DNA of 64,000 bases from Patescibacteria group bacterium. GTDB taxonomy: Bacteria; Patescibacteriota; Patescibacteriia; UBA1558; GWA2-36-10. Shown piece after piece: positions 2,619-36,202 of the stretch; within the stretch, counting starts at the first letter, position 1, and the number at the start of each line of letters is the position of its first letter. Made by a program: the position numbers and the translations under genes. The notes beneath the pieces were generated by a model that worked only from the letters and a program-made list of their open reading frames with translations, had not been told where the DNA came from and did not search any database. Location of the stretch: positions 147,108-211,107 of the forward strand of contig JBAYIR010000001.1 of NCBI GenBank assembly GCA_041665505.1, written 5' to 3'.

Positions 2619-3476
2619 ATGCCAGAATTACCAGAAGTAGAAACAATCAGGCGAGGCTTAAGTGACAAAATTCTCAATAAAAAGATTGTCAGCGTGGAGA
2701 TAAAAAAACCCAAATTATTGAGAAATAAAGTGGCTAAGTTCAAGTCGCTTATTGATAAAAATAGTATTTTATCTATTGATAGAGTAGGCAAGCTTTTGAT
2801 ATTCAATTTGGCAGATAATAATTTTTTGTTGATTCATCTTAAGATGACTGGTCAATTGATCTATTCATTTAAAGATAATTTAATAGCTGGTGGACATAAT
2901 TTTCCAGCTACTACTGAACTACCCAATAAATATTCTCATATTATTTTTAATTTTATAGATGGTTCAACTTTATTTTTTAATGACATGCGGCAATTCGGTT
3001 ATTTGCAGATAGTGGATAATTTGGGGCAAGAATCAGCCAGAGCTAGATTTGGTTTAGAGCCAGGTAGAGCTGATTTTACCTGGAAAAATTTTAGGAGTAT
3101 AATAAAAAGTAAGAAAGGATTACTAAAAGTTTTGCTTTTGAATCAGCAGATTATAGCTGGAATTGGTAATATTTATGCCGATGAAATATGCTTTAGAGCC
3201 AAAGTATTACCTAGTCGCTCTGTAGATAGTTTATCGGATGATGAAATAAAAAAGCTTTATCAAGCCTGCCAAGTTATTATTAAAAAAGCTATAGACAAAA
3301 GAGGCACTACTTTTAGTGATTATCGGGATGCAGACAACAAAAAGGGGAATTTTGTCAGCTATCTCAAAGTCTATGGTCGTCAAAATCAGTTATGTTTAAT
3401 TTGTAAAAATACCAAGATTAAAAAAATAAAAATCGCTAGTCGGGGGACACATTTTTGTCCTAGTTGTCAAAAATAG
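2619..3476 (+). CDS. mutM: Formamidopyrimidine-DNA glycosylase (Fpg/MutM)
   Basis: The protein begins MPELPEVETIRRGL, the canonical Fpg N-terminus, and ends with a CxxC...CxxC zinc finger (CLICK...CPSCQK). The ORF-track start at 2583 is replaced by the ATG at 2619. Confidence 0.9.
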   Translation: MPELPEVETIRRGLSDKILNKKIVSVEIKKPKLLRNKVAKFKSLIDKNSILSIDRVGKLLIFNLADNNFLLIHLKMTGQLIYSFKDNLIAGGHNFPATTELPNKYSHIIFNFIDGSTLFFNDMRQFGYLQIVDNLGQESARARFGLEPGRADFTWKNFRSIIKSKKGLLKVLLLNQQIIAGIGNIYADEICFRAKVLPSRSVDSLSDDEIKKLYQACQVIIKKAIDKRGTTFSDYRDADNKKGNFVSYLKVYGRQNQLCLICKNTKIKKIKIASRGTHFCPSCQK

Positions 3477-3518
3477 TTTATTATTACTAATACTTAATAA
3501 AAATTAATTTTTAAGGGG

Positions 3519-4169
3519 ATGAAAAAAATAAAATTTTATGACATTTTTTCTCTGCTGATAATTTTTTCTGTAGCTGTATCAGCTTATTATTTTAATGGCT
3601 TATTGCCAGATATAGTGATTACTCACTGGGGTTATAATGGTCAGCCTGATGGCTGGGGGGATAAAAGTGTTTTGGTGGTTTTTGTGCCATTTTTAATTAT
3701 TGGTCTTTATCTTTTATTTAGATTTTTGCCAAAGATGGATCCCAAAAAAGAAAATTATCTGAGATTTGACTCAGCTTATCATGCTTTTAAATTGTTGATG
3801 GTAGCTTTTTTAGCTATAGTTTATTTTATTTCTATTTATAGTAATCTTGGCTATCAAATACCTATTTCTGATACTATGACTTGGTTGATGGGTACTTTGT
3901 TTATTGTGATTGGATTTTTGATAAAAAATGTCAAGCAAAATTGGTTTATGGGTATTCGCACGCCTTGGACATTATCAAATGAAGAGGTTTGGAAAAAGAC
4001 TCATTTACTAGCTCAAAAAGTTTTTGTGGTAGGTGGTCTGTTTTTTGTCTTTATGCCTTATGCTTCCCCTAGCTATGTACCGATAATTTTTATCTTTGTC
4101 TTGGTGATGATTATTGGTCTTAGCTATGGCTATTCATATTGGCTGTATAGAAAATTAGAGAAAAAATAG
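3519..4169 (+). CDS. SdpI/DUF1648-family membrane protein
   Basis: HWGYNGQPDGWGDK is a DUF1648-like motif and GIRTPWTLSNEEVWKKTH is an SdpI-like motif. The protein is polytopic and hydrophobic. Confidence 0.55.
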   Translation: MKKIKFYDIFSLLIIFSVAVSAYYFNGLLPDIVITHWGYNGQPDGWGDKSVLVVFVPFLIIGLYLLFRFLPKMDPKKENYLRFDSAYHAFKLLMVAFLAIVYFISIYSNLGYQIPISDTMTWLMGTLFIVIGFLIKNVKQNWFMGIRTPWTLSNEEVWKKTHLLAQKVFVVGGLFFVFMPYASPSYVPIIFIFVLVMIIGLSYGYSYWLYRKLEKK

Positions 4170-4251
4170 GGGATTGTTGGGTAATATAGATTTTTCCCGC
4201 CAGAGGCGGACAGGTAGCTAATATTAGATAAAATTTGTTGGTATTTATATA

Positions 4252-4280
4252 TTGACAAATTTTTTGTTATATGATATAAT
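4252..4280 (+). promoter_or_regulatory. Sigma-70-type promoter (TTGACA-17-TATAAT) driving the GC-rich cassette 1 ORF
   Basis: TTGACA lies at 4252-4257, followed by a 17-nt AT-rich spacer and TATAAT at 4275-4280. A 10-bp perfect hairpin in the 5' UTR (TGACCAATAC/GTATTGGTCA) lies at 4329-4354. The RBS GGAGGA sits 7 nt upstream of the ATG at 4409. Confidence 0.55.
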
Positions 4281-4408
4281 AATACGTTCACTACTAAGGT
4301 GGGCTAATTGTGTCTTGTGACCAATACGCCTTAGTATTGGTCATTGAAATAGAGTTTAGTCGAAACACACGCAAGAGAGTCACTCGATAGAGAAGAAGGA
4401 GGAAAGTC

Positions 4409-6622
4409 ATGTATTTGGACAACCAGCAAAGGCTGGGAGAGTTCGGACTCTACCTGGGAGACACCTGGGGATGGGTCTGGCCGGAAATGATCCTGCCCAT
4501 CTTCGCCGTGGCAATTCTGCTCGGCTGGTGGATGGCAGCACTTCGTGTCAAACGTTTGGGAACGGCTGCCTTCAAAGGACAGGGCGGCTTCTGGAACTTC
4601 GCCATCAAGCGGGCGGCTGGTTTGGTCGCCACTGGACTGTTCGGGCTCATCATCCTGGTCAGTGTCCAGTACTTCGGTCAGGAGCGAGTAGCCAAGCACC
4701 ACGACCTGTGGGCTTGGCAAATCAAGGAATTCATCCCCATGCTCAAGGGTGTGGCAGTCGGGGAAGACTCGACTGTTGTCGCGCTTGAAGCCGAGAAGTA
4801 CTACGTCGTTGGCGATGATGAAGAAATTCCCGAGGGCTACTCGCGTGAGTCCTGGGAGAAGTTCATCAATCGGCCGGTTGGTGCCATTGAAGGCACCTTG
4901 GGTCGGCATACCCAGCCTAGGACCTTTGGCAAGGAAAGGGTATATAGGGGTGGTCACCCGCGTTGGTGGGTGGATCCTATCTCCTTGTTTATCCTGCTGT
5001 TGCTCTTGACACAAGTCTTGGGCAAAAGTGGTAAGATTTGGCTCTTCGGTCGCTACATTTGGGGCGTGGTGGTGGTACTGTATCTGATACTGTACCTGAC
5101 ACTCCGTCCTTGGCTCCAAGGTCAGGTGGATTTTTGGAGCCTCACACTGGTCATAAATTTGCTCCAGCTGTGTGTGGTGGCTTTGGTACTGCCTCTGGCC
5201 TGCAGGAAGTTGGTGTGGATGTTGAAGAACAGGCAATGCGTGGTTACTATTGATCCGATCGAAAAGCAGCCCATGGCCTACACTGGGCAGATGTTTTTCG
5301 GTCTGGGGATTGGTACATTTATTGCCTTCACCAGCATTTTCTTCGTGCTCTTGCTTTTTCCTGCAGACATCATCAAGTTGGGTGGGTCCATCCGGACGCG
5401 CTTGATTTACTTGGTGCTGCAGGTGCTTGCCACTGGAGCTTTCTTCTTCTTGACCCAACTGGAGCGGGTTAAGCAGAAGATTATGATTGAGATTCCTCGG
5501 CGTGTCAGTTTGATCGCTGGTGGGATCTTGAGCATCCTGGCTTTTGCCTTGCCGGGTGTCTGGCTTTTCCTGTTCTTGCTGATTTTGATGATCTTGGTTT
5601 ATGAGCTTGGTGCTAATTATCAAGTGCCGATTGCTCATAAGCTGGTTATTGAAATCTTCAAGAAGGATCGCTATGATCCCTGGATTTTCCTCTGGCAGAA
5701 AGAGACCAACCGTATGGCCTCAACATATGGTTGTCTCAAGACTATGTTGAGGGAGGGGCTTCACATTACGCTGGTGGCGATGTGGGCTCCGTGGCTTAGG
5801 GTGTTTGTTTTCGTCGAGGAAATCCTCGAAGTTAACAAATACAAAGTGGATGAGCCTTTGGCTACCAGCAGTGTGCCCTGTAAATTCGAAACCGACGACC
5901 AAGGTCGTTTGATTGAGATTCTGACGGATGGGGAGGGTGTTTCTACTGGGCCGCCAGTGGAGTTTTTCGTGAGTCAACGCTTTGGGATGTACCACGATCC
6001 ACGGCTCTTCCTGCGTCTGTCGCTGGAAGATAGGCGTGATCCAACGGGGCTTCTGAAGCGCGATACTCAGAACCACTTGGCTCGTCTGACGCGCAAGCTT
6101 GGTATGAACCAAGCACTGATCGGAAGTTACTACACTTCCGAGGCCCATTTCTTCTTCTTTGACGGTCCGGGCACAGAGCCTATGACTTTTCCGCAGCTCC
6201 TGCGTCGTGGCTCTATGCGAGTTGTTGGTTTCTTGGAGATGAGCACAGAGCTTTCCGACGGCAATCCTCCTCCCGGCCTTGAGGCTTCCCAGATCGAGCT
6301 GGAGAAAGCTAAGATCGATCTGGAGACCGAGCGGTTGAGAGCGGAGATGGCTGTCATCAAGAAGAAGGCTGAAGGCACTGGCGCCAAGGAGATGATCGAA
6401 GAGATCGAAAAGGCTCTTCAGAAGGGAGCCTCTGCTTTGGCGGCGTCTGAATGGCTCCAGGTCATGGAGCTGGTCAAGAGTGATGCCGTCAAGTGGTTAC
6501 TGCCTTCTGGTCTGATTGACCGCTTGGGCGGTCTGGGTGATGTAGCTCGGCGGCTTGGGGTTAGTGCTCCGACGACGCCAGCTGCTCCGACCTCACCGCC
6601 GGCTCCGCCGGCTGGCGACTAA
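4409..6622 (+). CDS. Hypothetical polytopic membrane protein (about 9 TM helices) with a C-terminal coiled-coil soluble domain and a Pro/Ala-rich tail, in high-GC cassette 1
   Basis: The 737-aa ORF is about 55-60% GC by eye against a roughly 30% background. It has a strong RBS, and a hairpin plus T-run terminator lies downstream. Multiple hydrophobic helices are present, for example ILPIFAVAILLGWWMAAL and SLIAGGILSILAFALPGVWLFLFLLILMILV. The C-terminal region reads ...IELEKAKIDLETERLRAEMAVIKKKAEG... No family is recognised. Confidence 0.6.
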   Translation: MYLDNQQRLGEFGLYLGDTWGWVWPEMILPIFAVAILLGWWMAALRVKRLGTAAFKGQGGFWNFAIKRAAGLVATGLFGLIILVSVQYFGQERVAKHHDLWAWQIKEFIPMLKGVAVGEDSTVVALEAEKYYVVGDDEEIPEGYSRESWEKFINRPVGAIEGTLGRHTQPRTFGKERVYRGGHPRWWVDPISLFILLLLLTQVLGKSGKIWLFGRYIWGVVVVLYLILYLTLRPWLQGQVDFWSLTLVINLLQLCVVALVLPLACRKLVWMLKNRQCVVTIDPIEKQPMAYTGQMFFGLGIGTFIAFTSIFFVLLLFPADIIKLGGSIRTRLIYLVLQVLATGAFFFLTQLERVKQKIMIEIPRRVSLIAGGILSILAFALPGVWLFLFLLILMILVYELGANYQVPIAHKLVIEIFKKDRYDPWIFLWQKETNRMASTYGCLKTMLREGLHITLVAMWAPWLRVFVFVEEILEVNKYKVDEPLATSSVPCKFETDDQGRLIEILTDGEGVSTGPPVEFFVSQRFGMYHDPRLFLRLSLEDRRDPTGLLKRDTQNHLARLTRKLGMNQALIGSYYTSEAHFFFFDGPGTEPMTFPQLLRRGSMRVVGFLEMSTELSDGNPPPGLEASQIELEKAKIDLETERLRAEMAVIKKKAEGTGAKEMIEEIEKALQKGASALAASEWLQVMELVKSDAVKWLLPSGLIDRLGGLGDVARRLGVSAPTTPAAPTSPPAPPAGD

Positions 6623-6652
6623 ACATACTTCCCTCTCAGAGGGGAAACAACA

Positions 6653-6688
6653 CCGGGACGTTTGAAAGGGCGTCCCGGTTTTCTATTT
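6653..6688 (+). terminator. Intrinsic terminator of cassette 1
   Basis: An 8-bp stem CCGGGACG/CGTCCCGG with a 10-nt loop is followed by TTTTCTATTT. A small hairpin CCCTC-tca-GAGGG precedes it. Confidence 0.7.
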
Positions 6689-6711
6689 GCTAAAATCTGG
6701 ACTTATATTTA

Positions 6712-6745
6712 TCAATCAAAAAATCCGCTAGTTTAGCGGATTTAA
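6712..6745 (-). terminator. Intrinsic terminator of dus (overlaps its stop codon)
   Basis: On the minus strand, the hairpin AATCCGCTA-aac-TAGCGGATT is followed by TTTTTTG. The stop TAG lies inside the stem. Confidence 0.6.
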
Positions 6746-7714
6746 TATTTTCTCTACATCATCAGGATTGCTTACAGTCACTAGTTGTTTTCTTAGTTCA
6801 CTAGCATCAGGTCGGCCTTTGACATAAAATAATAAATGTTTTCTCATTTCTATAAAAGCTCTTTCATTTTTTGATTGCCATAGCAAGTGAGCGTGCCTGA
6901 TAGCTGTTTCTTTGATAGTCGGCCAAGTGACTTCTTGGTAGCTGCCTGTGTCAATATAGTCTCTTATCTGCTTAAAGAGCCAAGGACGACCGTATAGAGC
7001 CCGAGATAGGGCTATACCATCAGCTTGAGTATATTTAAGGTCTGTTACTACTGACTCTATAGTCTGAAAAGAGCCATTGATAAGATATATAGACTGGGGG
7101 AAAGTGGTTTTAAATTTTTGACCAGCCTCACGCAACATTTCCAAATCCACTGGACCAGTAAAAGGTACTTCGTAGCTTCGGCCATGCAGTATCAAAGCAG
7201 CTAGTGGCAAATCTGATAGAGCATCTATAAAATCAAAAATAGTAATGTCACCAGAGTCAGGCTGACCTTGAGTTTTTCGCAGGCTAATTCTAGTTTTGAC
7301 TGATACAGGTATATCTACAGCTTCTATAGTTTTGGTGACAATGTCTCTGACAGTTTTCATATCTCTCAGTAGACAAATACCCCCACCGTGGCCAGCTACT
7401 TTTTTGGCGGGGCAACCAAAATTTATATCAATACCAGCTACGCCAGTTTTGGCGACAATTTTAGCGGCCTGAGGGTAGAGATCTGCTTGTTTGCCAAATA
7501 TTTGGACTACTACTGGTTGTTCACTGGCTTGATACTCTAGCATCTGTATAGTTTTAGAACTAGCATGGCAAAGAGCATCCACCGAGACAAACTCAGTGTG
7601 GACTATGTCAGCTCCCCAAGACTTACATATTTGACGCCAAGCGCTATCAGTAATACCAGCCATAGGCGTCATAGATAGTATGGGTTTTTTTAGATTTTGC
7701 CAAAAGTTTTCCAT
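6728..7714 (-). CDS. dus: tRNA-dihydrouridine synthase (Dus family)
   Basis: MTPMAGITDSAWRQICKSWGADIVHTEFVSVDAL and the following FMN-binding TIM-barrel motifs are typical of DusB-like enzymes. Confidence 0.85.
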   Translation of the reverse strand: MENFWQNLKKPILSMTPMAGITDSAWRQICKSWGADIVHTEFVSVDALCHASSKTIQMLEYQASEQPVVVQIFGKQADLYPQAAKIVAKTGVAGIDINFGCPAKKVAGHGGGICLLRDMKTVRDIVTKTIEAVDIPVSVKTRISLRKTQGQPDSGDITIFDFIDALSDLPLAALILHGRSYEVPFTGPVDLEMLREAGQKFKTTFPQSIYLINGSFQTIESVVTDLKYTQADGIALSRALYGRPWLFKQIRDYIDTGSYQEVTWPTIKETAIRHAHLLWQSKNERAFIEMRKHLLFYVKGRPDASELRKQLVTVSNPDDVEKILNPLN

Positions 7715-7788
7715 TTGTATATTATAAATCCCATCCAGATTAATCTTTAGATGGGATAGTTATAGCAAAAATAATTGTTTTTATCAAA

Positions 7789-8712
7789 TCAGAGCCATTT
7801 TTTGTTGCGGAAAAATACTAAAAAGAACATAATAACAACCAAAATGAAACTCAACATAATATAAAAATCACCAGCTGAACCAATAAAAGGCATGTGTTTG
7901 GCGTTCATACCAAATATAGAAGATATCAAAGTAGCTGGAATCATCACTACAGATACTACAGTCAATGTCTTCATAATGTCATTTAAACGGTGAGATATTA
8001 GTGATTCATTGGTTTCTTGGAAAGTATTGATATTTTCTTTAAGGGTTTCCAAAATATCCCAAATGTCTTTAGTCCTATCTAAAATATTACTAAAGTAAAT
8101 ATTCATCATATCATGCATGAAAAATTTATTGTTGGCACTCATTAGTTTTTTGATGATAGTTTTATGCGCTTGCATAATACGACGAAAATCTACAATATTT
8201 CTTTTGGTATGGAGTATTTCTATTACTAGTTTTTTTTCTTCTCCTTTGAAAATTCTTTTTTCTATATCTTCAATTTCTTGAGTGATATGGTCTAGCATCG
8301 GCATGGTGTAGTTTTGCAAGCGGTGTAAAACTTCATAAAGTAAAAATACAGAATGGCCGTCCATCATAAATTTATCTCGGCTGTATTCATTGGTTTTTAG
8401 TTCATTGAAAAAGTTTTTTATAGTAGGTGTTCGGCCGTCAGATATGGTAATTAAGTATTTTGGTCCAATAAAAAAATCAACTTCACTAGATTCTATTTCC
8501 CGAGTCTCTCTATTGTAAGCGGGGAAAGTCAATATAAAAAATATATAGTGAGTATACTCACTGATTTGAGGCCTTTGGATTCTACCTAGGCAGTCTTCAA
8601 GATCTAGAGGATGAAAATCGTATTCTTTTTGTAGATATTCAATTTCTGCTCGGGTCGGTTTTTCGATATGCAACCAGAGTATTTTTTTTGTTTTTATTTT
8701 GTCTATTTTCAT
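7789..8712 (-). CDS. corA: Magnesium/cobalt transporter CorA
   Basis: The GMN signature (SIFGMNAKHMPF) is followed by two C-terminal TM helices. Confidence 0.85.
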   Translation of the reverse strand: MKIDKIKTKKILWLHIEKPTRAEIEYLQKEYDFHPLDLEDCLGRIQRPQISEYTHYIFFILTFPAYNRETREIESSEVDFFIGPKYLITISDGRTPTIKNFFNELKTNEYSRDKFMMDGHSVFLLYEVLHRLQNYTMPMLDHITQEIEDIEKRIFKGEEKKLVIEILHTKRNIVDFRRIMQAHKTIIKKLMSANNKFFMHDMMNIYFSNILDRTKDIWDILETLKENINTFQETNESLISHRLNDIMKTLTVVSVVMIPATLISSIFGMNAKHMPFIGSAGDFYIMLSFILVVIMFFLVFFRNKKWL

Positions 8713-14033: not shown

Positions 14034-14062
14034 TTGACAAAAAATTTCATAAACTATAAAGT
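14034..14062 (+). promoter_or_regulatory. Promoter of cassette 2 unit a (TTGACA ... TATAAA)
   Basis: TTGACA at 14034-14039 is followed 15-17 nt later by TATAAA/TAAAGT. The RBS GGAGGA lies ahead of the ATG at 14129. Confidence 0.45.
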
Positions 14063-14128
14063 ATTTTAGCGTCCCTAGGCTCTTGATTCCTTCCCGCGTG
14101 TGACTCTCACTGAACTGGAGGACTTAGC

Positions 14129-14596
14129 ATGAGCAACATCGTAGGTAGTCCCTTGTTGCAGCGCATTACTGGCTGCTCAACCGACATTGCCACCGCCGCT
14201 CAGCAGGCGGTGGAGAGCCTAATGAAGCATCTTCAAGTTGGCACTTTGGTGCCTGGAAGCTGGAAGCTCTACTGGGCGCCGGAGTACTACAAGGACCCCA
14301 AACTTGAGTACGCTAGTGTCTTTAAGGTAGAGATCATTCTGACCATTCAGGCTCAGGCGGGTAGCCTCCCGCCACAGGACTCGCGGCAGTGGTTCGTAAG
14401 CGAGATCATCGCCTCTGATGATCGTAGCGACAGAGCCATGATGGCCGCCGTGCAGCAGGCTACTGCTGTGATGGTCGAGCACGGCCTCAACGAGAATGAG
14501 TGTCAGAGTCTCATTCTCTGCTACACCAAGGACAACAAGGTCTACTGCTCCTTCTGGCTGTTCTACTACGCCGAGCAGGAAGTGGACTGTCACTGA
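14129..14596 (+). CDS. Hypothetical 155-aa protein (high-GC cassette 2)
   Basis: The ORF is GC-rich and has a GGAGGA RBS with a 7-nt spacer. It is followed by the terminator GGAGGCAGCAC-tgcg-GTGCTGCCTCC. No family is recognised. The antisense ORF 14219-14593 is judged spurious. Confidence 0.5.
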   Translation: MSNIVGSPLLQRITGCSTDIATAAQQAVESLMKHLQVGTLVPGSWKLYWAPEYYKDPKLEYASVFKVEIILTIQAQAGSLPPQDSRQWFVSEIIASDDRSDRAMMAAVQQATAVMVEHGLNENECQSLILCYTKDNKVYCSFWLFYYAEQEVDCH

Positions 14597-14623
14597 GTTT
14601 TGATCCCTCAGCGGATCGTTTTA

Positions 14624-14658
14624 GGAGGCAGCACTGCGGTGCTGCCTCCTGCCTTTTA
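14624..14658 (+). terminator. Intrinsic terminator of cassette 2 unit a
   Basis: An 11-bp stem with a 4-nt loop is followed by TGCCTTTTA. Confidence 0.65.
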
Positions 14659-14693
14659 CTTAATTTTAATTATAGTATTTTGTGTTTATTTAG

Positions 14694-14721
14694 TTGACAA
14701 AAAACTTATTTTAGGTTAATT
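14694..14721 (+). promoter_or_regulatory. Promoter of cassette 2 unit b (TTGACA-16-TTAATT)
   Basis: TTGACA lies at 14694-14699. The -10 element is weak. Confidence 0.35.
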
Positions 14722-14778
14722 TCTTTGGGCTTAGTGTTATTTCACAGTTGACTAGGACTCCAACGAAAGGATTCGAGC

Positions 14779-15093
14779 ATGTCCAAGCGTATGGTGGTTG
14801 TTCAACACAGCCATGTTATTGGAGTGTGTTCTGGTACCGTCAGAGTTGAGCGTCTGGAAAATGCTCAGACTGGCGTCCGTTTCAGGTTGAAGATTGGCAG
14901 TGAGCGTTCTGTCAGTAGCCCTGACATCGCAGAGCTGACCAGCTGTCTCAAAGACCAGGTCTTTGCTCGCCGTGTGAGCCAGGCTTTTACTATGGAGGCG
15001 CCGACTATTTCTTCTCTTCGACCAATGCTTCCCAAGTTCAAGGTGAAGTTCTTAGCCACGAAGGCTCGCCGTGACGAGGATCTGTTCGATTAA
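14779..15093 (+). CDS. Hypothetical 104-aa protein (high-GC cassette 2)
   Basis: The ORF is GC-rich with an AGGA RBS. No family is recognised. Confidence 0.45.
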   Translation: MSKRMVVVQHSHVIGVCSGTVRVERLENAQTGVRFRLKIGSERSVSSPDIAELTSCLKDQVFARRVSQAFTMEAPTISSLRPMLPKFKVKFLATKARRDEDLFD

Positions 15094-15115
15094 ATGTAAA
15101 AAATGGAGGAACTCC

Positions 15116-15343
15116 GTGCCTAAAATCAGCCTGGCCAAGGCTGATCCTATCCGTCAGCAGATACTATTGGTGGTTGAGTCTTGGCCCAAGGCAGAAGGCG
15201 AATGCAAGCCGAGCGCGGTTTGCTGTTTGGTCGCTGAAACTGGTGCGGCTAGCTATGGCGATTGCGCCCAGCAAGTGGCTATCCTTTTGCAACAAGGAGA
15301 ACTGAAAATAGAGCCTCAGCAAAGAGGGCTCTACGTTCCGTGA
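15116..15343 (+). CDS. Hypothetical 75-aa protein (high-GC cassette 2), GTG start
   Basis: A perfect GGAGGA lies 5 nt upstream of the GTG at 15116. The ORF-track start at 15071 would overlap the preceding ORF. The terminator follows immediately. Confidence 0.4.
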   Translation: MPKISLAKADPIRQQILLVVESWPKAEGECKPSAVCCLVAETGAASYGDCAQQVAILLQQGELKIEPQQRGLYVP

Positions 15344-15345
15344 GA

Positions 15346-15380
15346 GGGGCTTCGGGAAACCGAAGCCCCTTAACTTTTTT
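15346..15380 (+). terminator. Intrinsic terminator of cassette 2 unit b
   Basis: GGGGCTTCGG-gaaa-CCGAAGCCCC is followed by TTAACTTTTTT. Confidence 0.75.
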
Positions 15381-27999: not shown

Positions 28000-28180
28000 A
28001 AATAAGATTAGCACTATTGAGCGGTTTCAGAAAGGTATGAGATTATCCCTCAAGCAGTATTATAAACAAGCTTTTTCTGAACGAGTTAAGAAAGGTTTGA
28101 TGGTAAAAAATAAGAAAAAATTATCCACTTTTGATTAAGTTGCAATGTAAAGCAGAGTAAAGTATAATGAACACAACAAT

Positions 28181-28699
28181 ATGTTGGTAGATAGCATACA
28201 AAAATACATATCATTGTATGATGCTGAAAGATATTTGTTTGAAGTTCTTGGTCCAAAGATAAGGGAGAACGGCTACATAACTTTCAAAGATTTTTATGAT
28301 ATATGTATGTGGAAATCAGCTAGGCAGAAACAAAATTATTTAAAGAATAAAGATGTAGTTGAAGAGATTACAAGAAAAGCATTGAATCAGAGTGATGAGA
28401 TTGATAGAATAAATACTTTACGTCAATTAAAAGGTGTTGAGATAAAAACAGCATCAGCAATTTTAACAATCATTTTTCCAGAGAAATATGCCGTTATGGA
28501 TGAGAGGTGCTTGGATATATTGATAGATTATGGTTTTCGGATTAGCAAATATCCGACTATTAAAACTTGGATACAATACATAGGAATAATGAGAAGTTTG
28601 GCCAAAGAAAATAATGTTAGCCCTAGAGAATTAGATATGGCCTTTTTTGCAATACATAGGGAAAAGTTAGAAAAGGCAAATTTTAAAAACTTATATTAG
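28181..28699 (+). CDS. Hypothetical protein (172 aa)
   Basis: The ORF has typical composition and sits within the element gene block. Confidence 0.45.
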   Translation: MLVDSIQKYISLYDAERYLFEVLGPKIRENGYITFKDFYDICMWKSARQKQNYLKNKDVVEEITRKALNQSDEIDRINTLRQLKGVEIKTASAILTIIFPEKYAVMDERCLDILIDYGFRISKYPTIKTWIQYIGIMRSLAKENNVSPRELDMAFFAIHREKLEKANFKNLY

Positions 28700-28705
28700 T
28701 AAATT

Positions 28706-28888
28706 ATGATAGCAAAAGAAAAAGATTTTTATAAAGCAGAAGACTTGGCCCGAGTATTAGAGGTAAACATTATGACAATTTACCGATATATAAAAGCAGG
28801 TCGACTAAAAGCATACAAAATAGGCCGTGAGTTTCGGATTGATAAAGCTGATTTTCAATCTTTCTTAAAAAAAGTTAGTACAAAATAG
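28706..28888 (+). CDS. Excisionase/MerR-like helix-turn-helix DNA-binding protein
   Basis: MTIYRYIKAGRLKAYKIGREFRI is a motif of the Xis-type HTH_17 family. Confidence 0.55.
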   Translation: MIAKEKDFYKAEDLARVLEVNIMTIYRYIKAGRLKAYKIGREFRIDKADFQSFLKKVSTK

Positions 28889-28890
28889 TT

Positions 28891-30678
28891 ATGACCGAAA
28901 GAGAATTATTACAACAAAAGGAGAACCATATTCTCAAACTTGAAAAAGAAATTGAGAAATGGAAAAAAGCAGTTAAAACTCAAAGATATGGTTTAGTATG
29001 GCTTGATGTGCCCGAAGCGTTTGAAGATGATGTTGAGAACAAATTGCCAATTCTTGAGGAAGTACCTAAAAAAGCTATAAAAAGTATAGACGAAAAACCT
29101 ACACATTTACTCATTGAGGGAGATAACTATCACGCACTTACTTGTTTGAATTACACACACAAAGGAAAGATAGATGTTATTTATATAGACCCACCATACA
29201 ACACGGGTTCGGATGGTTTTAGATATAAAGATAAAAGGATATTAGACCAATATCCCGATGGTACTGAAGTACCAAAAGACCATCCTTTTAGGCATAGCTA
29301 CTGGTTGTCTTTTATGAGTAAAAGATTGGAACTCGCAAAAAGTTTATTAAAAGATACTGGAACTATATTTATTTCAATTAACGAAGACGAATTCGCACAA
29401 CTAAAGTTACTTTGTGACAGAATTTTTGGTCTAGAAAATTATTTGACAATGTTTACTATTAAAGTACGGCACGAGGAGCGTATTCTCAAGGGGGATAAAG
29501 ATTTTCACGAGGTGGTTGAATATCTTTTATTGTACAGAAATTCATCTAACTATAAAACTATAAAAAAAATATATGATAATACTTCTCTAGATGAATATGT
29601 ATATCAGATTATTGAAAAAATAAAAAAACCTAAATCAGTTAAGCTTGGAAATAAAATAGTTGAGTATTTTGAACCATCGCAATATGAAATAAAAAAAGTT
29701 CCAGCAAGTGCAGATAATTTGAAAAAAATAAACATTCGGGGTTCTTTGAAAGAAGGAAATAGTAGTGGCAGATTTTATATGAATTATATCGCTTCTAGGG
29801 GCACTAAGGGAGTGTTGTATAAAGTGCCTAATATGGGAGCGGATAAGTTTGGTTATAGGTATTTTTTGATACCAGCTAAGGAAAATAGATTAAATGGAGA
29901 TTATTTTCAAGGCGTGCCTTTAGATATACAAGATACCAAAGAAGTGCCATATCCTAACTATTTTGACCTTGAAAAAGAGTTTAATAATGTTGGATATGAG
30001 GGAGGTGTTAATTTTGGAGGTGGAAAGAAACCTATAGATTTCCTTAGGCATTTTATTAACATTGGCTCTTTAAATAAAGATGCAATCATATTAGATTTTT
30101 TTGCTGGTTCAGGAAGTACAGGGCACGCAGTTATGCAGATGAATGAAGATGATGAAGGTCATAGGCAGTTCATTTTAGTCACAAATAATAATGAAATTGT
30201 AAAAGATAAAGTTTACCACCCAATGTCTGAAGCGTGTCTACCAAGAATAAAGAATGTGATTAAGGGTTATGATAAAAATCCAAGTTTGGGAAATTCAATC
30301 AAATACTATAAAACTTCTTTTGTTGGTAAACATAACATTCTTGATGCGGATGATAAGGATAAAATACAACTTGCTCATCACGCAGGCGAAATGCTTGCAA
30401 TAGCTGAAAATACCTTAGAGCAAATAAAGAAAAACGACTATTGGCAGATATTTGAAAATACAAACAGAATGACAGCTATATATTTCCGAGAAGAACAAGA
30501 TAGACTTGATGAATTTGTGAAAGAAGTTTTAGCACTCAAAAAACCAGTAACGGTGTATATGTTTAGTTGGGAAGAAAAGGTTGAAATTATCGATTTTGAA
30601 GACATTCACAACATAAGCCTAAAAACTATACCTCAGCCAATTCTTGAAATATATAAGCAGATATATAACATTATTTAG
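28891..30678 (+). CDS. mod: Type III R-M DNA methyltransferase (Mod, N6-adenine/N4-cytosine beta-class)
   Basis: The DPPYNTGSD motif (motif IV) precedes FFAGSGSTGHA (motif I), the circularly permuted order typical of Mod. The gene is followed by a Res helicase gene. Confidence 0.8.
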   Translation: MTERELLQQKENHILKLEKEIEKWKKAVKTQRYGLVWLDVPEAFEDDVENKLPILEEVPKKAIKSIDEKPTHLLIEGDNYHALTCLNYTHKGKIDVIYIDPPYNTGSDGFRYKDKRILDQYPDGTEVPKDHPFRHSYWLSFMSKRLELAKSLLKDTGTIFISINEDEFAQLKLLCDRIFGLENYLTMFTIKVRHEERILKGDKDFHEVVEYLLLYRNSSNYKTIKKIYDNTSLDEYVYQIIEKIKKPKSVKLGNKIVEYFEPSQYEIKKVPASADNLKKINIRGSLKEGNSSGRFYMNYIASRGTKGVLYKVPNMGADKFGYRYFLIPAKENRLNGDYFQGVPLDIQDTKEVPYPNYFDLEKEFNNVGYEGGVNFGGGKKPIDFLRHFINIGSLNKDAIILDFFAGSGSTGHAVMQMNEDDEGHRQFILVTNNNEIVKDKVYHPMSEACLPRIKNVIKGYDKNPSLGNSIKYYKTSFVGKHNILDADDKDKIQLAHHAGEMLAIAENTLEQIKKNDYWQIFENTNRMTAIYFREEQDRLDEFVKEVLALKKPVTVYMFSWEEKVEIIDFEDIHNISLKTIPQPILEIYKQIYNII

Positions 30679-30679
30679 T

Positions 30680-33055
30680 ATGAAAAACTTTAACCCATTA
30701 CAATTTCAAAAAACTGCCGTAGAAAATCTTACAGATATATTTATTTCGGTATGGAAGCAACAAGGCAGGCAATTGCCCATTGTTTTGAAATCACCAACTG
30801 GAAGTGGTAAAACGTTTATAACATCACTTTTTGTTCGTGGCCTTAACCATTTACCACAATGGAAAGAAGATAAGGCATTTATTTGGATTACTTTTAGTGA
30901 TGATTTGGCTATGCAGAGCAAAGGAAAATTTCTTGAGTATTTTGAAAATATGCTTGAAAATAGAACTTTAACTGTTGCAGATATAAATCAAGGCAAACTT
31001 TATCCAAATGATATTTTATTCTTGAACTGGCAAAAAGTAATAGCAAAAAATGCAGAGACAAGATTAATTCGTCGTCCAGAAGATGAGGAATGGGCAAAAG
31101 AAACTGGTAAGTACTTTGAAGATGTGATTGAACAAACTCAAGCAGATGGTAGACAAATCATTTTAATTATTGATGAAGCTCATAAAAATAAAGATACAAA
31201 ACTAGCAAAGGACATTATTGATAAAATTGACCCTAAAGTAATTCTTCACATTACAGCAACACCAAATGAAGCGGACGAGCTAAATTCTCGCCGTCTTGGT
31301 AGTTATTATGAAGTTCCAAGAAAAGAGGTAGTTGAGCAAGGGCTAATCAAAGAAGCGATTGTCACTCAAACAGAAGAAGATTTTCAGGGTATGTCAGGCA
31401 AAGACCTTGATGAAATTCTTCTTGAAAATGGAATAAATAAACGAGAAGAGTTAAAAGCCGAATTTAGTGCACTTGGAAAAAATATAAATCCCTTGATGTT
31501 GATACAGATACCAAATGATGATAGTAAACTAATTGAAAAAGGTGAACAAACAAAGGAAGAAATTGTTATAGATTATCTTATTAAGATGAAAGTGCCTAAA
31601 CATAAAATTGCCAAATGGTCTAAGGGACAAGATAAACCAAAAGGACTAGAAGACAATGATGATGAACACGATTTTCTTATTTTTAAACAAACTGCTGGTA
31701 CTGGTTGGGATTGTCCTCGTGCATCTGTACTTGTGATGTTTAGAGAAATACAATCAAATACTTTTTATACTCAAACGGTTGGACGTATTTTGAGAATGCC
31801 AGAACCTCAAGCTAGGGAAGATTATAAAAATAATCCTAATCTTCGCTTGGGTTATTTATATACAAATTATAAACGTAAGGAAGTGGTTATACCAGACCAA
31901 AATCCTGCAAATAAACCACTAACAGAAACTGCCCATCGGAAAAATGGTATAAATAATATAGAGTTATCTTCAGATTATATCTCTCGTTTGGACTACGGTG
32001 ATATTCGCGTATCATCAAAATTTCAAGAGGTATTTAAAACAGAGCTTAATAAACATTTTGGAATTACAAGTAGTGATATTTTAGGTAAAGCTGAAATAAA
32101 GTTAAAAAAAGCAGGCTTAGACCTGACAGATACTTTAGTAAATGAAGTTATAGCCAATGCTCGTTTTGAGGATTACGACAATCTCGCCTTTGATTTTAAA
32201 AAGAAAGGTAGCGATGTTTCTCTTGAAATGTCGGTAAGTGATATTGAAAAAACTTTTAATTATCTTTGTTACCAAATTTTAAAAGAACAAGAAGATAGTA
32301 AGGCTAAATACTCAAATGTTGCTCGTTCTTGGTCGGTGCTAAAACAAGCACTTCGTGTTTGGTTTAAAACTGTTTTAAAAGATGACCATATTTATTGGTA
32401 TAAGATATTTATTAAAGATGTTCGTAAGGGTGCAGAAAGTAAATTTCGTCCAGCAATAACAAAAGCACTTAGAGCTTATAAACCAATATCAGACAGTTTG
32501 CTTGTTGAAAAGAAAAGGAAAGTGGAAGAAAAAGAGTCATATATTTTTACCATACAGAATGAGTATCAATACCCAGAAGATTATAAGATTGTGCCTCAAA
32601 AATTATGTGTCTTAGATAAATTTTATTTACCCGAAGATTATAATGGGCGTAAAAATGAAATTGCTTTTGTTGAGTATCTAGAAAAGAAGAAAGGGAAGAT
32701 TGATTGGTGGTTCAAAAACGGCAATCAAGGTAAAAAATATCTTGGTATTAAATATACAAACTCATCCACAAAAGAAGAAGACTTGTTTTACCCTGATTGG
32801 ATTATTAGTTTTTCAGATGGTCGTATAGGTATTTTTGATACAAAAAAGGGTAATACATTGTTCGATTTTGGAACACCAGAAAAGGCAGATGCACTACAAA
32901 AAAAACTTAGGGTATTTGGCAAAAAGTTTATAGGTGGCATTGCCTACCAAGAAGGAGTTATTTGGTATTACAATGACAGTCCAAAATACTCTTTTAAGGA
33001 AGGAGAATCAGTAAATGACAATAAGCAATGGAAGCCTTTTGAAGATTTATTTTAA
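30680..33055 (+). CDS. res: Type III restriction enzyme Res subunit (SF2 helicase/nuclease)
   Basis: Walker A (PTGSGKT) and a DEAH box (IIDEAHKN) are present. The protein is large and lies downstream of mod. The start is moved to the ATG at 30680. Confidence 0.75.
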   Translation: MKNFNPLQFQKTAVENLTDIFISVWKQQGRQLPIVLKSPTGSGKTFITSLFVRGLNHLPQWKEDKAFIWITFSDDLAMQSKGKFLEYFENMLENRTLTVADINQGKLYPNDILFLNWQKVIAKNAETRLIRRPEDEEWAKETGKYFEDVIEQTQADGRQIILIIDEAHKNKDTKLAKDIIDKIDPKVILHITATPNEADELNSRRLGSYYEVPRKEVVEQGLIKEAIVTQTEEDFQGMSGKDLDEILLENGINKREELKAEFSALGKNINPLMLIQIPNDDSKLIEKGEQTKEEIVIDYLIKMKVPKHKIAKWSKGQDKPKGLEDNDDEHDFLIFKQTAGTGWDCPRASVLVMFREIQSNTFYTQTVGRILRMPEPQAREDYKNNPNLRLGYLYTNYKRKEVVIPDQNPANKPLTETAHRKNGINNIELSSDYISRLDYGDIRVSSKFQEVFKTELNKHFGITSSDILGKAEIKLKKAGLDLTDTLVNEVIANARFEDYDNLAFDFKKKGSDVSLEMSVSDIEKTFNYLCYQILKEQEDSKAKYSNVARSWSVLKQALRVWFKTVLKDDHIYWYKIFIKDVRKGAESKFRPAITKALRAYKPISDSLLVEKKRKVEEKESYIFTIQNEYQYPEDYKIVPQKLCVLDKFYLPEDYNGRKNEIAFVEYLEKKKGKIDWWFKNGNQGKKYLGIKYTNSSTKEEDLFYPDWIISFSDGRIGIFDTKKGNTLFDFGTPEKADALQKKLRVFGKKFIGGIAYQEGVIWYYNDSPKYSFKEGESVNDNKQWKPFEDLF

Positions 33056-33058
33056 TTT

Positions 33059-34654
33059 ATGAAAGCAATAAATGTCTCAAGAGTATCAACCGAAGAACAA
33101 AAAGAAGCTGGTAATTCTTTGCCTGCTCAGATTGAACGTGTAGACGCTTATTGTAAGAGAAAAGATTTTGAAGTTATTAAATCTTTTAGTTTTGATGAAA
33201 GTGCTTATAAAGATAAGCGAGATGAGTTTGATAAACTACTTGAGTATGTTCAAAAAATAGCCACAAAGGAAAAGGTGGCTGTTTGTTTTGATAAAGTAGA
33301 CAGACTTTCAAGAAGTGTATTTGATAAGAGAGTTGCCGTATTTTATCAAATGGCTTTAGAAGATAAAATAGAGTTGCATTTTGTTTCAGACAATCAAATC
33401 ATAAACGGAAAATTATCGGCAACAGAAAAAAGTGGATTTGGTATGAGCCTTGTAATGGCTAGTTACTATTCAAATGCAATAAGTGATAATGTTAAGAGAG
33501 CATTTGAGCAAAAAAGACGTAATGGAGAATGGACAGGGCAAGTACGCTTAGGGTATTTAAACGTTAGTTTAGACCAAGCAAAAAGATTACGCAAAGACAT
33601 TATCATAGACCCAGACAAAGGGCATCTTATACAGAAAATGTTTGAACTCTATGCTACTGACCAATACTCTTTGAAAACCTTGCAAATTAAAATTAGTGAG
33701 CTTGGTTTGAGAACTCGCTATGGAAATAAACTTTCATTAAGTGGCATAGAAAAAATCATTAAGGACAGTTTTTATTGTGGTATTGCTATGTCAACAAAGT
33801 ATGGTTCTTATGCCCATAAATATCCTCGTTTAATATCAAGAGAACTCTTTGATAAGTGCCAACAGATACGCACCAAACGCAATAAAATGCCCTATAAGGC
33901 ACACTCTAAGGACTTTATGCTAAAAGGCCTGTTAAGATGTAATAATTGTGGTTGTTTAATGAGCCCTCAAAAACAGACTAAGAAAAGTGGACTTGAATTT
34001 ATCTATTATACTTGTACGAATGCCAAAGGTATATGCAAAAAAATATATATACCAGAAAAAGACCTTTTAAAACCAATCTATGATGTTTTAGAAAGATTTG
34101 AGAGTATAAGTGAGGAAGTACAGAATGGTCTTGTTGAGGAATTACGCAAATGTACCGAAATAGAAGTAGTATTTCATAAGGCACAAATAAATCGTATTCG
34201 AACAGATTATGATAATTTAAAAGCGAAGCAAAATAGACTTCTTGATGCATTTTTAGACCAGAGTATTACTAAGGACATCTATGACAAGAAACATCAAGAG
34301 TATCAAGACCAAATACAAACTTTAGAAATTGAAATGTCTGAACATCAGAAAGCAGATTTTGATTACAAAACTACTGTCGCTACAGTCATTTCCGTAGCAC
34401 GCAGAGCAAAAACTATATTTGAAAATAGTTCTGAAGTTGCTGGAAAAAGAACATTTTTGAGTTACATACTTCAGAACCCGATTGTAACAGGTAGAATACT
34501 TACCTTTGACCTCAAAAAACCCTTTGATTTAGTGCTAAGTCTTGCTGATAACCAAAGAAAAAAGACTATCGTTTCTGATAGTCATCTTTCTTGGCTCGGG
34601 GACAGGGATTCGAACCCCGGTTGGCTGGACCAAAACCAGCTGTCCTACCACTAG
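33059..34654 (+). CDS. Large serine recombinase (integrase)
   Basis: The N-terminal resolvase domain carries the catalytic Ser (NVSRVSTEEQ). A recombinase domain, a zinc ribbon (CNNCGC...YYTC) and a coiled coil follow. The last roughly 63 nt overlap the tRNA-Gln on the opposite strand. Confidence 0.85.
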   Translation: MKAINVSRVSTEEQKEAGNSLPAQIERVDAYCKRKDFEVIKSFSFDESAYKDKRDEFDKLLEYVQKIATKEKVAVCFDKVDRLSRSVFDKRVAVFYQMALEDKIELHFVSDNQIINGKLSATEKSGFGMSLVMASYYSNAISDNVKRAFEQKRRNGEWTGQVRLGYLNVSLDQAKRLRKDIIIDPDKGHLIQKMFELYATDQYSLKTLQIKISELGLRTRYGNKLSLSGIEKIIKDSFYCGIAMSTKYGSYAHKYPRLISRELFDKCQQIRTKRNKMPYKAHSKDFMLKGLLRCNNCGCLMSPQKQTKKSGLEFIYYTCTNAKGICKKIYIPEKDLLKPIYDVLERFESISEEVQNGLVEELRKCTEIEVVFHKAQINRIRTDYDNLKAKQNRLLDAFLDQSITKDIYDKKHQEYQDQIQTLEIEMSEHQKADFDYKTTVATVISVARRAKTIFENSSEVAGKRTFLSYILQNPIVTGRILTFDLKKPFDLVLSLADNQRKKTIVSDSHLSWLGDRDSNPGWLDQNQLSYH

Positions 34655-34665
34655 ACGATCCCCGA
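34592..34665 (-). tRNA. tRNA-Gln (anticodon UUG)
   Basis: The minus-strand read is TCGGGGATCGTCTAGTGGTAGGACAGCTGGTTTTGGTCCAGCCAACCGGGGTTCGAATCCCTGTCCCCGAGCCA. It has a 7-bp acceptor stem (U1-A72), an anticodon stem GCTGG/CCAGC with loop TTTTGGT, a T-loop TTCGAAT, discriminator G and an encoded CCA. Confidence 0.8.
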
Positions 34666-34795
34666 ATATTGTATAAAACAAAAAAATTATAGTATATATT
34701 TAATTTTTAGTCAATGGAAAGAGGACCCCGAGACGCTATGTAGCATCATGTATTCGGGGCCCCCTTGTCGGTCAGCTGGTTGTCCTAGCTAGTAG

Positions 34796-35029: not shown

Positions 35030-35110
35030 GGTTTCCCTCTCTGTGGGGTGTGGTGTTGTGGCTGTTTACCACAACAAGTTAGCCGGAGTCTTATCCTCCT
35101 CTCTGGTAAA

Positions 35111-36057: not shown

Positions 36058-36139
36058 GCGGCGCCTCCTTAGTGGCGTTTTGCTTGGCGTTTTGCTCTTA
36101 CTGCGATTCGTGTTGTTAGAGAACTGTTATGCTAATTTC

Positions 36140-36190
36140 ATTATACATAAAATAACACTTAATTCAAGTATATTTCTTTATTTTTGTCAA
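36140..36190 (-). promoter_or_regulatory. Promoter region for the lipoprotein operon (minus strand): TTGACA, then TTGAAT-16-TATAAT
   Basis: On the minus strand, TTGACAAAAATAAAGAAATATACTTGAATTAAGTGTTATTTTATGTATAAT is present. A roughly 75-nt leader contains the tandem 11-bp repeat GCAAAACGCCA x2. Confidence 0.45.
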
Positions 36191-36202
36191 TAGATAAGTT
36201 AT

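Follow-up and report, generated by a model that had tools for sequence, protein, structure and literature searches.

The 64,000-nucleotide stretch of DNA analysed here (the window) contains at positions 4252–6688 a real gene, which is a separate transcription unit and encodes a membrane protein of a rare kind, from Komeilibacteria-like (CPR) bacteria. On the strength of its relatives and of a medium-confidence structural model, the C-terminal third of the protein is a divergent SPFH/Band-7 domain, and it is fused to an N-terminal half of about nine transmembrane (TM) segments without a match to any known family; this fused TM-SPFH architecture is uncommon and occurs in a single clade. With a homology that is remote and limited to one domain, the gene does not belong to the ordinary HflK/C, stomatin or flotillin genes. 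It is odd in that it evolves fast and is GC-rich in an AT-rich genome, while hardly anything has changed in its promoter, leader RNA and terminator. The reading that we prefer, to which we give a probability of about 0.6, is that of an autonomous, probably very strongly expressed and regulated unit for a 9-TM/SPFH fusion, with a base composition held by a constraint acting on RNA or transcription.

Organization of the transcription unit

All features described are on the forward strand of the window, except for one antisense open reading frame. The sigma-70-type promoter (4252–4280) consists of TTGACA (4252–4257), a 17-nt spacer and TATAAT (4275–4280), with an extended -10 TG at 4272–4273. An initial annotation of this DNA had called it near-consensus, and the match is in fact perfect (12 of 12 positions). 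There is no second perfect TTGACA-17-TATAAT between 3400 and 7900, and the 32-nt promoter string occurs once in the whole window (expected, 0). The hexamers are identical across all lineages and the spacers match at 13–15 of 17 positions, a conservation that holds even upstream of relatives with only ~27–30% protein identity; scanning metagenomes for the promoter pattern gave seven loci, six of them upstream of family members. Directly upstream of the promoter is an AT-rich block (4213–4251) that is nearly invariant in five lineages and contains the palindrome GCTAATATTAG (4217–4227), and in two distant loci, L007 and L008, the promoter is likewise preceded by a GCTAAWWTTAGC palindrome. The block is a candidate transcription factor site or UP element, to which a regulator may bind.

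With transcription predicted to start ~7 nt past the -10 element, the 5′ leader spans ~122 nt (4287–4408), slightly less than the ~125 nt first estimated, and has a GC content of 0.42 vs 0.28 in the 120 nt upstream. A permissive-threshold search of positions 4150–4460 with Rfam covariance models gave noise-level matches only (E values of at least 1.6). Close to the start of the leader there is a Shine-Dalgarno-like box, UACUAAGGUG (4292–4301), which provides the 5′ side of a long-range, conserved helix, and the complementary segment (4327–4336) comprises the loop and the first 3′ arm bases of a downstream hairpin. In RNAalifold predictions and pair counts over nine lineages, 90% of cells in the box-loop helix are paired and five pairs are changed on both sides; values as high as these come up in only 1–3 of 500 shuffles, and the paired fraction in slid controls is 30–57%. 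These counts were made without the alignment from the hairpin covariance model, since that model picked up spurious matches. The hairpin itself (4317–4344) has an 11-bp stem, with 10 Watson-Crick pairs (4318–4327 with 4334–4343) and one G-U pair, and a GCCUUA loop; its free energy is -15.9 kcal/mol (z = -6.9). A perfect 10-bp hairpin had been annotated at 4329–4354, so that the element is real and its coordinates were ~11 nt off. It is present at the equivalent position in eight of ten lineages, with both-side pair changes in L002, L008 and L006, and its local covariation on a MAFFT alignment shows no excess over shuffles. Judging from these comparisons, the conserved structure of the leader is larger than the hairpin, which is one part of it. 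A leader peptide initiated at a TTG or GTG after the Shine-Dalgarno-like box was considered and rejected, its frame and length differing between lineages.

The leader may be loosely analogous to the STAB-SD element of Bacillus thuringiensis cryIIIA (Agaisse & Lereclus 1996, cited in PMC3997798). The likeness would consist in a Shine-Dalgarno-like sequence far upstream of the true ribosome-binding site of a strongly signalled gene; unlike in STAB-SD, the box here pairs with the loop of a hairpin further downstream. The ribosome-binding site read from the sequence is the GGAGGA first annotated, at 4398–4403; the ATG (4409) follows after 5 nt.

The coding region (4409–6622) specifies 737 amino acids, as the initial annotation had it, and has a GC content of 0.54, with third-position values of 0.64 for G+C (GC3) and 0.10 for A (A3). 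Nucleotide identity to orthologues is highest at codon position 2 (0.63–0.68), lower at position 1 (0.52–0.59) and lowest at position 3 (0.36–0.41, near saturation), the order that would be expected for a protein-coding gene. Just past the stop codon is a small hairpin in the 3′ UTR (CCCTCTCAGAGGG; 6628–6648), and hairpin-forming sequence is also found at the equivalent position in relatives. It is followed by an intrinsic terminator (6652–6688) with a 12-bp GC-rich stem (6652–6679) and a T run. Conservation of the terminator extends to L001, L002 and L004, and in L004 a G-C pair has become A-U by compensatory change. The description of the locus as a single self-contained unit for one polytopic membrane protein is borne out by this monocistronic arrangement with its own promoter and terminator. 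The 435-residue open reading frame on the opposite strand (4331–5638, reverse strand), listed among the open reading frames and already called an artefact in the initial annotation, is not a gene; its lengths and places differ in relatives, and it is poor in stops because its codon position 1 faces sense position 3, where A accounts for only 10%, so that T-initial stops are rare.

A polytopic membrane region fused to a divergent SPFH domain

The polytopic region (residues 27–401; 4487–5611) has nine TM segments in a hydropathy scan (27–45, 69–87, 187–205, 210–232, 247–265, 299–317, 332–350, 365–380 and 382–401), in agreement with the ~9 helices first counted, and AF2 models place helices here. 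It contains the conserved motifs YLxLYLTLRPW and QCxVTxDPxxKxP. Modelled alone with AF2, the N-terminal 405 residues have a pLDDT of 66, and in Foldseek searches of the PDB this model matched generic helical bundles only, with E values of at least 1.7. The loop between TM2 and TM3 (residues 88–186; 4670–4966) is ~99 residues long, rather than the ~130 initially given; it is hypervariable, with 15–23% identity among orthologues and lengths of 96–270 residues. Lysine and arginine counts in the short loops (17 inside vs 5 outside, a positive-inside count) predict that the TM2-TM3 loop lies outside the cytoplasm. The number of helices differs among relatives, with extra helices in L005 and a single TM segment in short members (e.g. 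P0010).

The SPFH/Band-7 domain (residues 402–620; 5612–6268) was assigned by Foldseek and by the Pfam matches of relatives. The AF2 model of the protein has a pLDDT of 70.5 overall and of 80–93 over residues 450–620. The top Foldseek matches in the PDB are HflK/HflC, stomatin and flotillin (E = 3e-6 to 0.16, probability 0.97–1.00), the listed matches including complexes of stomatin with aquaporin 1 and of HflK/C with FtsH, and the significant matches in BFVD are Band 7 proteins only. This structural comparison had been proposed in the initial annotation, which could not place the protein in any family; that remains so for the N-terminal half and no longer holds for the C-terminal third. The 737-residue protein alone finds nothing in Pfam, NCBIfam or PDB sequence searches, and its C-terminal domain has no Pfam match even at E <= 10. 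Among relatives, however, 8 of the 16 family members match Pfam Band_7 (PF01145; best E 3.8e-7), as do 6 of 10 C-terminal domains searched alone (best E 1.6e-7). A family profile searched against PDB sequences has QmcA as its top match (E = 0.03), with an alignment that covers the region of the signature G-x-x-V-x-x-x-E-I-x-D-x-x-P-P.

The membrane anchor is directly N-terminal of the domain, TM9 ending at residue 401 and the first strand starting at 403. The domain is followed by a long helix with an AEG(T)G motif (residues 621–672; 6269–6424), and the 50 residues modelled by AF2 as helical (622–671) align with the coiled-coil segment of QmcA; in the model, this helix is the counterpart of the coiled-coil helix that builds the wall in SPFH cages. 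The protein ends in a Pro/Ala/Thr-rich tail, SAPTTPAAPTSPPAPPAGD (6563–6619), with a pLDDT below 50, and similar proline-rich tails are present in P0003, P0006, P0007 and P0013. The ~330-residue C-terminal domain with a coiled coil and a proline-rich end that was first described is thus recovered as 336 residues.

The layout of an anchor, an SPFH alpha/beta domain, a long coiled-coil helix and C-terminal helices is common to HflK/HflC, QmcA and YqiK-type proteins, and these share with the 737-residue protein an AEGE-like motif on the coiled-coil helix. They differ in having one TM segment or a hairpin in place of nine TM helices, and the protein described here is set apart by its extreme divergence (below the Pfam threshold), its confinement to a small CPR clade, and its GC-rich, fast-evolving gene without FtsH or NfeD nearby. 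With eukaryotic stomatin and flotillin cages it has the Band-7 fold in common, and assembly into a ring or dome is likely by analogy; the anchor of stomatin and flotillin is a re-entrant hairpin with lipid modification, whereas here a large polytopic domain, whose predicted external loop is variable, takes that place.

Conservation, base composition and alternative explanations

The family is small, with 16 clusters among 1.84 billion (1.84e9) protein representatives, and its genome matches lie in MAGs of Ca. Komeilibacteria and Patescibacteria. The gene order Fpg-SdpI-gene-Dus-CorA is kept in five lineages, the neighbours being Fpg, SdpI/DUF1648, Dus and CorA in all of them, and none has FtsH, NfeD or a second SPFH paralogue adjacent to the gene. 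Protein identity across lineages is 34–43%, vs 62–83% for the neighbours. The initial annotation had named a clear homology to a common housekeeping membrane protein family, with the same context in relatives, as pointing to a more ordinary protein; the shared context was found and the clear homology was not. Comparative evidence indicates that the gene is vertically inherited at a fixed locus. A phage-borne gene was considered and rejected, there being no relatives in the viral contigs scanned and no meaningful matches in PADLOC and PHROGs searches. Flanking repeats or mobility genes are lacking at the borders of the unit, and no partial or silent copies of the gene are found in 64, 22, 14 and 21 kb of flanks in four genomes (~120 kb). 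Sequences of the same species from different samples are 99.98–100% identical. A literature search on SPFH proteins in Patescibacteria and on GC3 heterogeneity in CPR found nothing relevant.

At 54% GC and a GC3 of 0.64 the gene stands out from the ordinary genes of the window (GC3 0.17–0.31). The GC3 distribution in the window is bimodal, and ribosomal protein genes belong to the AT-rich class (L27 and L9, GC3 0.18), on which ground ordinary translational selection was rejected as the cause of the codon bias. The third-position shift is asymmetric, with A3 falling from 0.33 to 0.10 and T3 from 0.43 to 0.26, and G3 rising from 0.13 to 0.37 and C3 from 0.11 to 0.27. High GC begins in the transcribed leader and stops at the terminator, and across lineages GC3 is 0.54–0.74 for the gene vs ~0.28 for its neighbours. 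It is not obligatory for the family, because L016, which has a near-identical promoter, has a GC3 of 0.26, and L017 one of 0.40. An assembly chimera is rejected, as the junction of AT-rich promoter and GC-rich reading frame is seen again in assemblies made independently (JGI, ENA, Logan and GenBank). The window has further GC-rich units with orphan genes, also with TTGACA promoters, and the comparison of these units with the gene, suggested at the outset for their proteins, found no similarity. One of these units adjoins a tRNA-Gln, beyond which a serine recombinase gene is located.

The sharp GC step from 0.31 to 0.54, the foreign-looking codon usage, the absence of a family annotation and the other GC-rich orphan units, including the one by the tRNA-Gln and serine recombinase, could all indicate recently acquired foreign DNA, i.e. 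a genomic island from a GC-richer donor with an incomplete drift to host composition. Such an island would not be expected at a position kept in five lineages so far apart that their housekeeping proteins share no more than 62–83% identity, nor to retain high GC3 in all five lineages with third positions near saturation; moreover, its promoter is AT-rich, native-looking and conserved across the family, AT-rich flanks surround all family members found, and there are neither flanking mobility genes and repeats nor relatives in viral contigs. A recent foreign origin is largely refuted and we regard it as highly improbable; a constraint acting on RNA or linked to transcription would fit the composition better. 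A similar GC contrast is known for the vls cassettes of Borrelia, which have 49% GC vs 28.6% for the chromosome, and in which the ~50% GC has been read by the authors as held by strong selective pressure (PMC11499132); the likeness is that of a ~50% GC coding region within a ~29% GC genome. A contingency or antigenic-variation locus of the vlsE type, with GC-biased gene conversion from silent copies or population alleles, is nonetheless unlikely, as the flanks searched contain no such copies, different samples of one species do not vary, and GC enrichment keeps to the boundaries of the transcription unit, non-coding leader included. The GC skew is also far lower (0.126, vs 0.52 in vls), and G-runs are not enriched (40 runs of three or more vs 41.9 expected) and G4 motifs are absent. 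In favour of such a locus, besides the GC contrast, are the fast evolution, a probably external loop that is hypervariable and length-variable as on a diversified surface, and conserved flanks that could act as recombination arms.

Extreme transcription could instead enrich GC as an unselected mutational by-product, if transcription-coupled repair or deamination favoured A:T-to-G:C changes, mostly on the non-template strand. The same process would account for the fast divergence, and it is consistent with an enrichment present only within the transcribed unit, with the asymmetric third-position shift, with a perfect consensus promoter here and TTGACA promoters on the other GC-rich units, and with an untranscribed promoter that is frozen next to a transcribed part that diverges fast. 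However, ribosomal protein genes are AT-rich, L016 has an ordinary GC3 behind its near-identical promoter, and we know of no comparably strong transcription-linked mutational effect established in bacteria; we consider this explanation rather doubtful. A different question is whether the 9-TM part is a channel or transporter with the fused SPFH domain as a built-in regulator, much as stomatin acts on ion channels or aquaporin, and not part of a general scaffold. SPFH proteins bind and regulate membrane clients, as in the stomatin-aquaporin 1 and HflK/C-FtsH complexes among the PDB matches, and polar loop and TM motifs (QCxVTxDPxxKxP, TLRPW) are conserved, but no transporter or channel matches the TM domain significantly in structure or sequence, and the helix number of the domain varies among relatives, down to one TM segment in short members, so that this role is a minority possibility.

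Proposed model and significance

In the preferred reading, that of a constrained, autonomous unit, the SPFH part would be on the cytoplasmic face of the membrane and the TM2-TM3 loop outside. SPFH proteins are described as forming ring- or dome-shaped assemblies around a patch of membrane (PMC12624060). By analogy, oligomerisation via the long helix would give a ring or dome that fences a membrane patch, and the fenced patch would hold the polytopic domain of the protein itself. Expression would be set by the perfectly conserved consensus promoter together with the upstream palindrome, and the pairing of the Shine-Dalgarno-like box with the hairpin loop is probably an mRNA-stability or translation switch. 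An RNA-level or transcription-linked constraint would keep the G+C of the whole transcribed unit high and its A content low within an AT-rich genome.

SPFH proteins are universal membrane organisers; to our knowledge, the clients and roles of the bacterial ones are mostly unclear, and the envelope and host-contact biology of CPR bacteria is almost unknown. A natural fusion of SPFH and polytopic domains would offer a ready-made pair of scaffold and client for structural work. With a GC content ~25 points above that of the genome and saturated synonymous sites, the gene is a natural test of mutation vs biased conversion vs RNA-level selection, and its nearly invariant promoter and leader provide an entry point to the study of its expression and to the search for further members.

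We tentatively raise the possibility that the GC-rich units form a distinct CPR class of self-contained, strongly promoted, GC-held units for clade-specific orphan membrane or secreted proteins, with the leader as a new cis-regulatory RNA. If so, the SPFH fusion would be the largest member of a class with GC3 values of 0.5–0.8 vs 0.25 and A3 down to 0.06, the mRNAs of which may be built to escape AU-directed decay or for a special translation regime, and base composition would be a trait of a class of genes, both regulated and heritable.

Transcription unit and leader RNA

The SPFH gene (4409–6622, rightwards) encodes 737 amino acids and forms its own transcription unit. A consensus promoter had been proposed ahead of it in the initial annotation, and the sigma-70 elements (TTGACA, 4252–4257; 17-nt spacer with an extended -10 TG; TATAAT, 4275–4280) indeed match at 12 of 12 positions, the only such match within 3400–7900; the 32-nt promoter string occurs once in the window (0 expected by chance). 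The GGAGGA described there, a ribosome binding site, is likewise present (4398–4403), 5 nt ahead of the ATG, and the unit ends with a terminator containing a 12-bp GC-rich stem and a T run (6652–6688). The leader hairpin described previously is real (−15.9 kcal/mol; z = −6.9 against shuffles) but is located at 4317–4344 rather than 4329–4354; its stem has 10 Watson-Crick pairs and a single G-U, and its loop is GCCUUA. A separate GC-rich hairpin, CCGCCAGAGGCGG (4195–4210), sits after the stop codon of SdpI and before the conserved promoter block; this window-specific insertion has no counterpart in the other four lineages and may serve to terminate SdpI.

Despite fast divergence of the coding region, about 70 bp of promoter has hardly changed in any lineage, a block that includes an upstream palindrome (GCTAAWWTTAG(C)), the -35 and extended -10 elements and most of the spacer between them. 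The leader also keeps conserved blocks over its first ~85 nt, the terminator stem has been retained with a compensatory change, and distant family members are preceded by the same promoter and leader. Of seven loci retrieved from metagenomes with a degenerate promoter pattern, six lie ahead of family members. The match at metagenome locus L014 (coordinates 3064–3098 of a 175-kb contig) precedes an unrelated ORF of 145 aa that is AT-rich (0.18 GC at third codon positions, GC3), and the core promoter alone is thus not exclusive to the SPFH-fusion family.

The leader contains a Shine-Dalgarno-like box, UACUAAGGUG (4292–4301), complementary to 4327–4336, which corresponds to the hairpin loop and the start of its 3′ arm. 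This long-range helix has 90% of cells paired across nine lineages, with five pairs changed on both sides; only 1–3 of 500 shuffles reach the observed values, and slid controls pair at 30–57%. The local hairpin is found at the same position in eight of ten lineages when each is folded alone, and its covariation is not above shuffles on an automatic alignment. Four positions are common to both helices, so the two are alternatives at least in part. The leader has no match in Rfam and is a candidate cis-regulatory or mRNA-stabilising element; STAB-SD type elements in the literature offer a comparable precedent.

An SPFH-family protein of unusual architecture

Hydropathy and two AlphaFold models give nine transmembrane helices (residues 27–401) and a soluble C-terminal part of 336 residues, including a 50-residue helix (622–671) and the tail SAPTTPAAPTSPPAPPAGD, in agreement with the nine or so helices and ~330-aa domain initially described. 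The TM2–TM3 loop is also present, but is 99 residues long and not ~130. The count of K+R is 17 in the proposed inner short loops versus 5 in the outer, which suggests that the N-terminus and the variable TM2–TM3 loop are outside and the SPFH domain is cytoplasmic.

As a single query the protein has no match in Pfam, NCBIfam or PDB, and only 16 relatives emerged when 1.84 billion cluster representatives were scanned exhaustively with HMMER, and two from a word-indexed search of 5.8 billion proteins. However, the initial failure to place it in a family is overturned for the C-terminal domain, which several results assign to the SPFH/Band-7 family. Pfam Band_7/SPFH is matched by eight of the 16 relatives (best E 3.8e-7) and by six of ten isolated C-terminal domains. 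The top PDB match of the family profile is the SPFH protein QmcA (E = 0.03), the alignment covering the signature segment 'G-x-x-V-x-x-x-E-I-x-D-x-N-P-P' and the coiled coil after it. The best-ranked PDB structures for the AlphaFold model (mean pLDDT 70.5; C-terminal domain 80–93) are HflK, HflC, stomatin and flotillin (E down to 3e-6, probability 1.00), and the model's significant matches in a viral structure library are Band-7 proteins only. The nine-helix part modelled alone has no significant structural neighbour, and PADLOC and PHROGs searches found nothing for the protein. These results make the protein an architecturally unusual member of the SPFH family, in which a large polytopic domain replaces the usual single anchor.

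GC-rich units and other elements of the window

The SPFH gene is 54% GC with a GC3 of 0.64, and its neighbours are about 31% GC with a GC3 of about 0.25. GC3 in the window is strictly bimodal: all ordinary genes, including those for ribosomal proteins L27 and L9, fall at 0.17–0.31, and a few short units (14.0–15.4 kb, 34.7–37.3 kb, 46.7–47.3 kb and the SPFH gene) at 0.47–0.73. The third-position shift of the SPFH gene is asymmetric, with A at 0.10 (0.33 in background genes), T at 0.26 (0.43), G at 0.37 (0.13) and C at 0.27 (0.11). The antisense ORF at 4331–5638 has its first codon position opposite the sense third position, and is long because the rarity of A there makes T-initial stop codons rare; it is not conserved in relatives, and its earlier dismissal as a GC artefact holds. 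The Dus gene (6728–7714, leftwards) has an intermediate GC of 0.41 that is due to codon positions one and two (GC1 0.52) and not to the third (GC3 0.30–0.31), placing it outside the GC-rich class.

The other GC-rich units likewise start from TTGACA promoters and end in strong, GC-rich terminators, and their proteins belong to no Pfam family. Two rightwards mini-units (14034–15371), with zero Pfam matches, contain respectively a promoter (TTGACA-17-TAAAGT, 14034–14062), a 155-aa ORF (14129–14596, GC3 0.73) and a 13-bp terminator (14622–14651), and ORFs at 14779–15343 followed by a 12-bp terminator (15344–15371). A leftwards island (34670–37470; GC 0.44–0.56, GC3 0.56–0.82) encodes small orphan proteins of 77, 221 and 93 aa with signal-peptide or lipoprotein-like N-termini and no Pfam family; the 93-aa protein matches the Major Vault Protein repeat below threshold (E = 0.003). 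Also within this GC-rich unit of a CPR-type genome are three aptamers of the c-di-GMP-II riboswitch class (36866–37461, leftwards), which at 66.7, 65.2 and 71.7 bits all exceed the Rfam gathering score; two form a tandem pair before a 67-aa ORF (36975–37178) and the other precedes a 134-aa ORF (36450–36854). The fourth unit (46717–47319, rightwards) has a promoter (TTGACA-17-TATAGT, 46717–46745), a ~300-nt leader, a Cys-rich ORF of 66 aa (47060–47260, GC 0.59) and a 14-bp terminator (47289–47319). In the related locus L004 a 189-aa ORF (7484–8053) directly upstream of Fpg has a raised GC3 (0.51) and no Pfam match, which suggests that GC-rich orphan units vary in number and place between lineages.

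Elsewhere, 28180–34665 is a probable integrated mobile element containing a 60-aa excisionase-like ORF, two ORFs of 595 and 803 aa, and a large serine recombinase of 531 aa, with Resolvase, Recombinase and Zn_ribbon_recom domains, whose ORF runs into tRNA-Gln (34592–34665, leftwards). A complete bacterial RNase P class A RNA (218.5 bits) is at 60064–60445, leftwards.

Inheritance and maintenance of composition

Genome matches come from MAGs assigned to Candidatus Komeilibacteria and 'Patescibacteria group', and the order Fpg – SdpI/DUF1648 – SPFH gene – Dus (leftwards) – CorA (leftwards) is kept in five lineages (the window and loci L001/L005, L002/L003, L004 and L006/L013). Between lineages the SPFH proteins are 34–43% identical and those of neighbouring genes 62–83%, with GC3 of 0.54–0.74 versus about 0.28. 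The SPFH domain is the best conserved part (42–54%), and the TM2–TM3 loop the most variable (15–23%; 96 to 270 residues). Orthologue nucleotide identity is 0.63–0.68, 0.52–0.59 and 0.36–0.41 at codon positions 2, 1 and 3, confirming protein coding with synonymous sites close to saturation. Distant members L007 and L008 (about 27–30% identity) have a GC3 of 0.74–0.77 and AT-rich flanks. Of two members behind a near-identical promoter, L017 is less GC-rich (0.40) and L016 not GC-rich at all (0.26).

The five-lineage synteny, the near-saturated synonymous sites and the retained high GC3 speak against recent horizontal acquisition, and the lack of relatives on viral contigs against a phage-borne cargo gene. 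The nearest documented parallel in GC contrast is the Borrelia vls locus, whose cassettes are 49% GC in a 28.6% GC genome and were read by the authors as strongly selected (PMC11499132). However, its defining features are missing here: same-species sequences from different samples are 99.98–100% identical, about 120 kb of available flanks contain no partial gene copies, and the SPFH gene has no enrichment of G runs and zero G4 motifs, which argues against vls-like gene conversion.

With synteny conserved and synonymous sites near saturation, drift to genome composition should have erased a foreign signature, which implies that the GC bias is actively maintained. It could be due to RNA-level selection (stability, structure or decoding), transcription-linked mutation bias, or GC-biased gene conversion. 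The GC rise begins in the leader (0.42–0.48 versus 0.15–0.28 upstream) and stops at the terminator, and this confinement to the transcribed unit speaks for the first two causes. A simple effect of transcription strength is countered by the AT-rich ribosomal protein genes and by L016, AT-rich behind a near-identical promoter. The initial description is largely borne out, and its interpretation was sound within its limits. The gene is inherited vertically and conserved in place, and it evolves fast behind expression signals that barely change; its product is a rare polytopic variant within the SPFH scaffold family, restricted to one clade. The compositional behaviour of the unit and its leader RNA are the parts surprising to a specialist.
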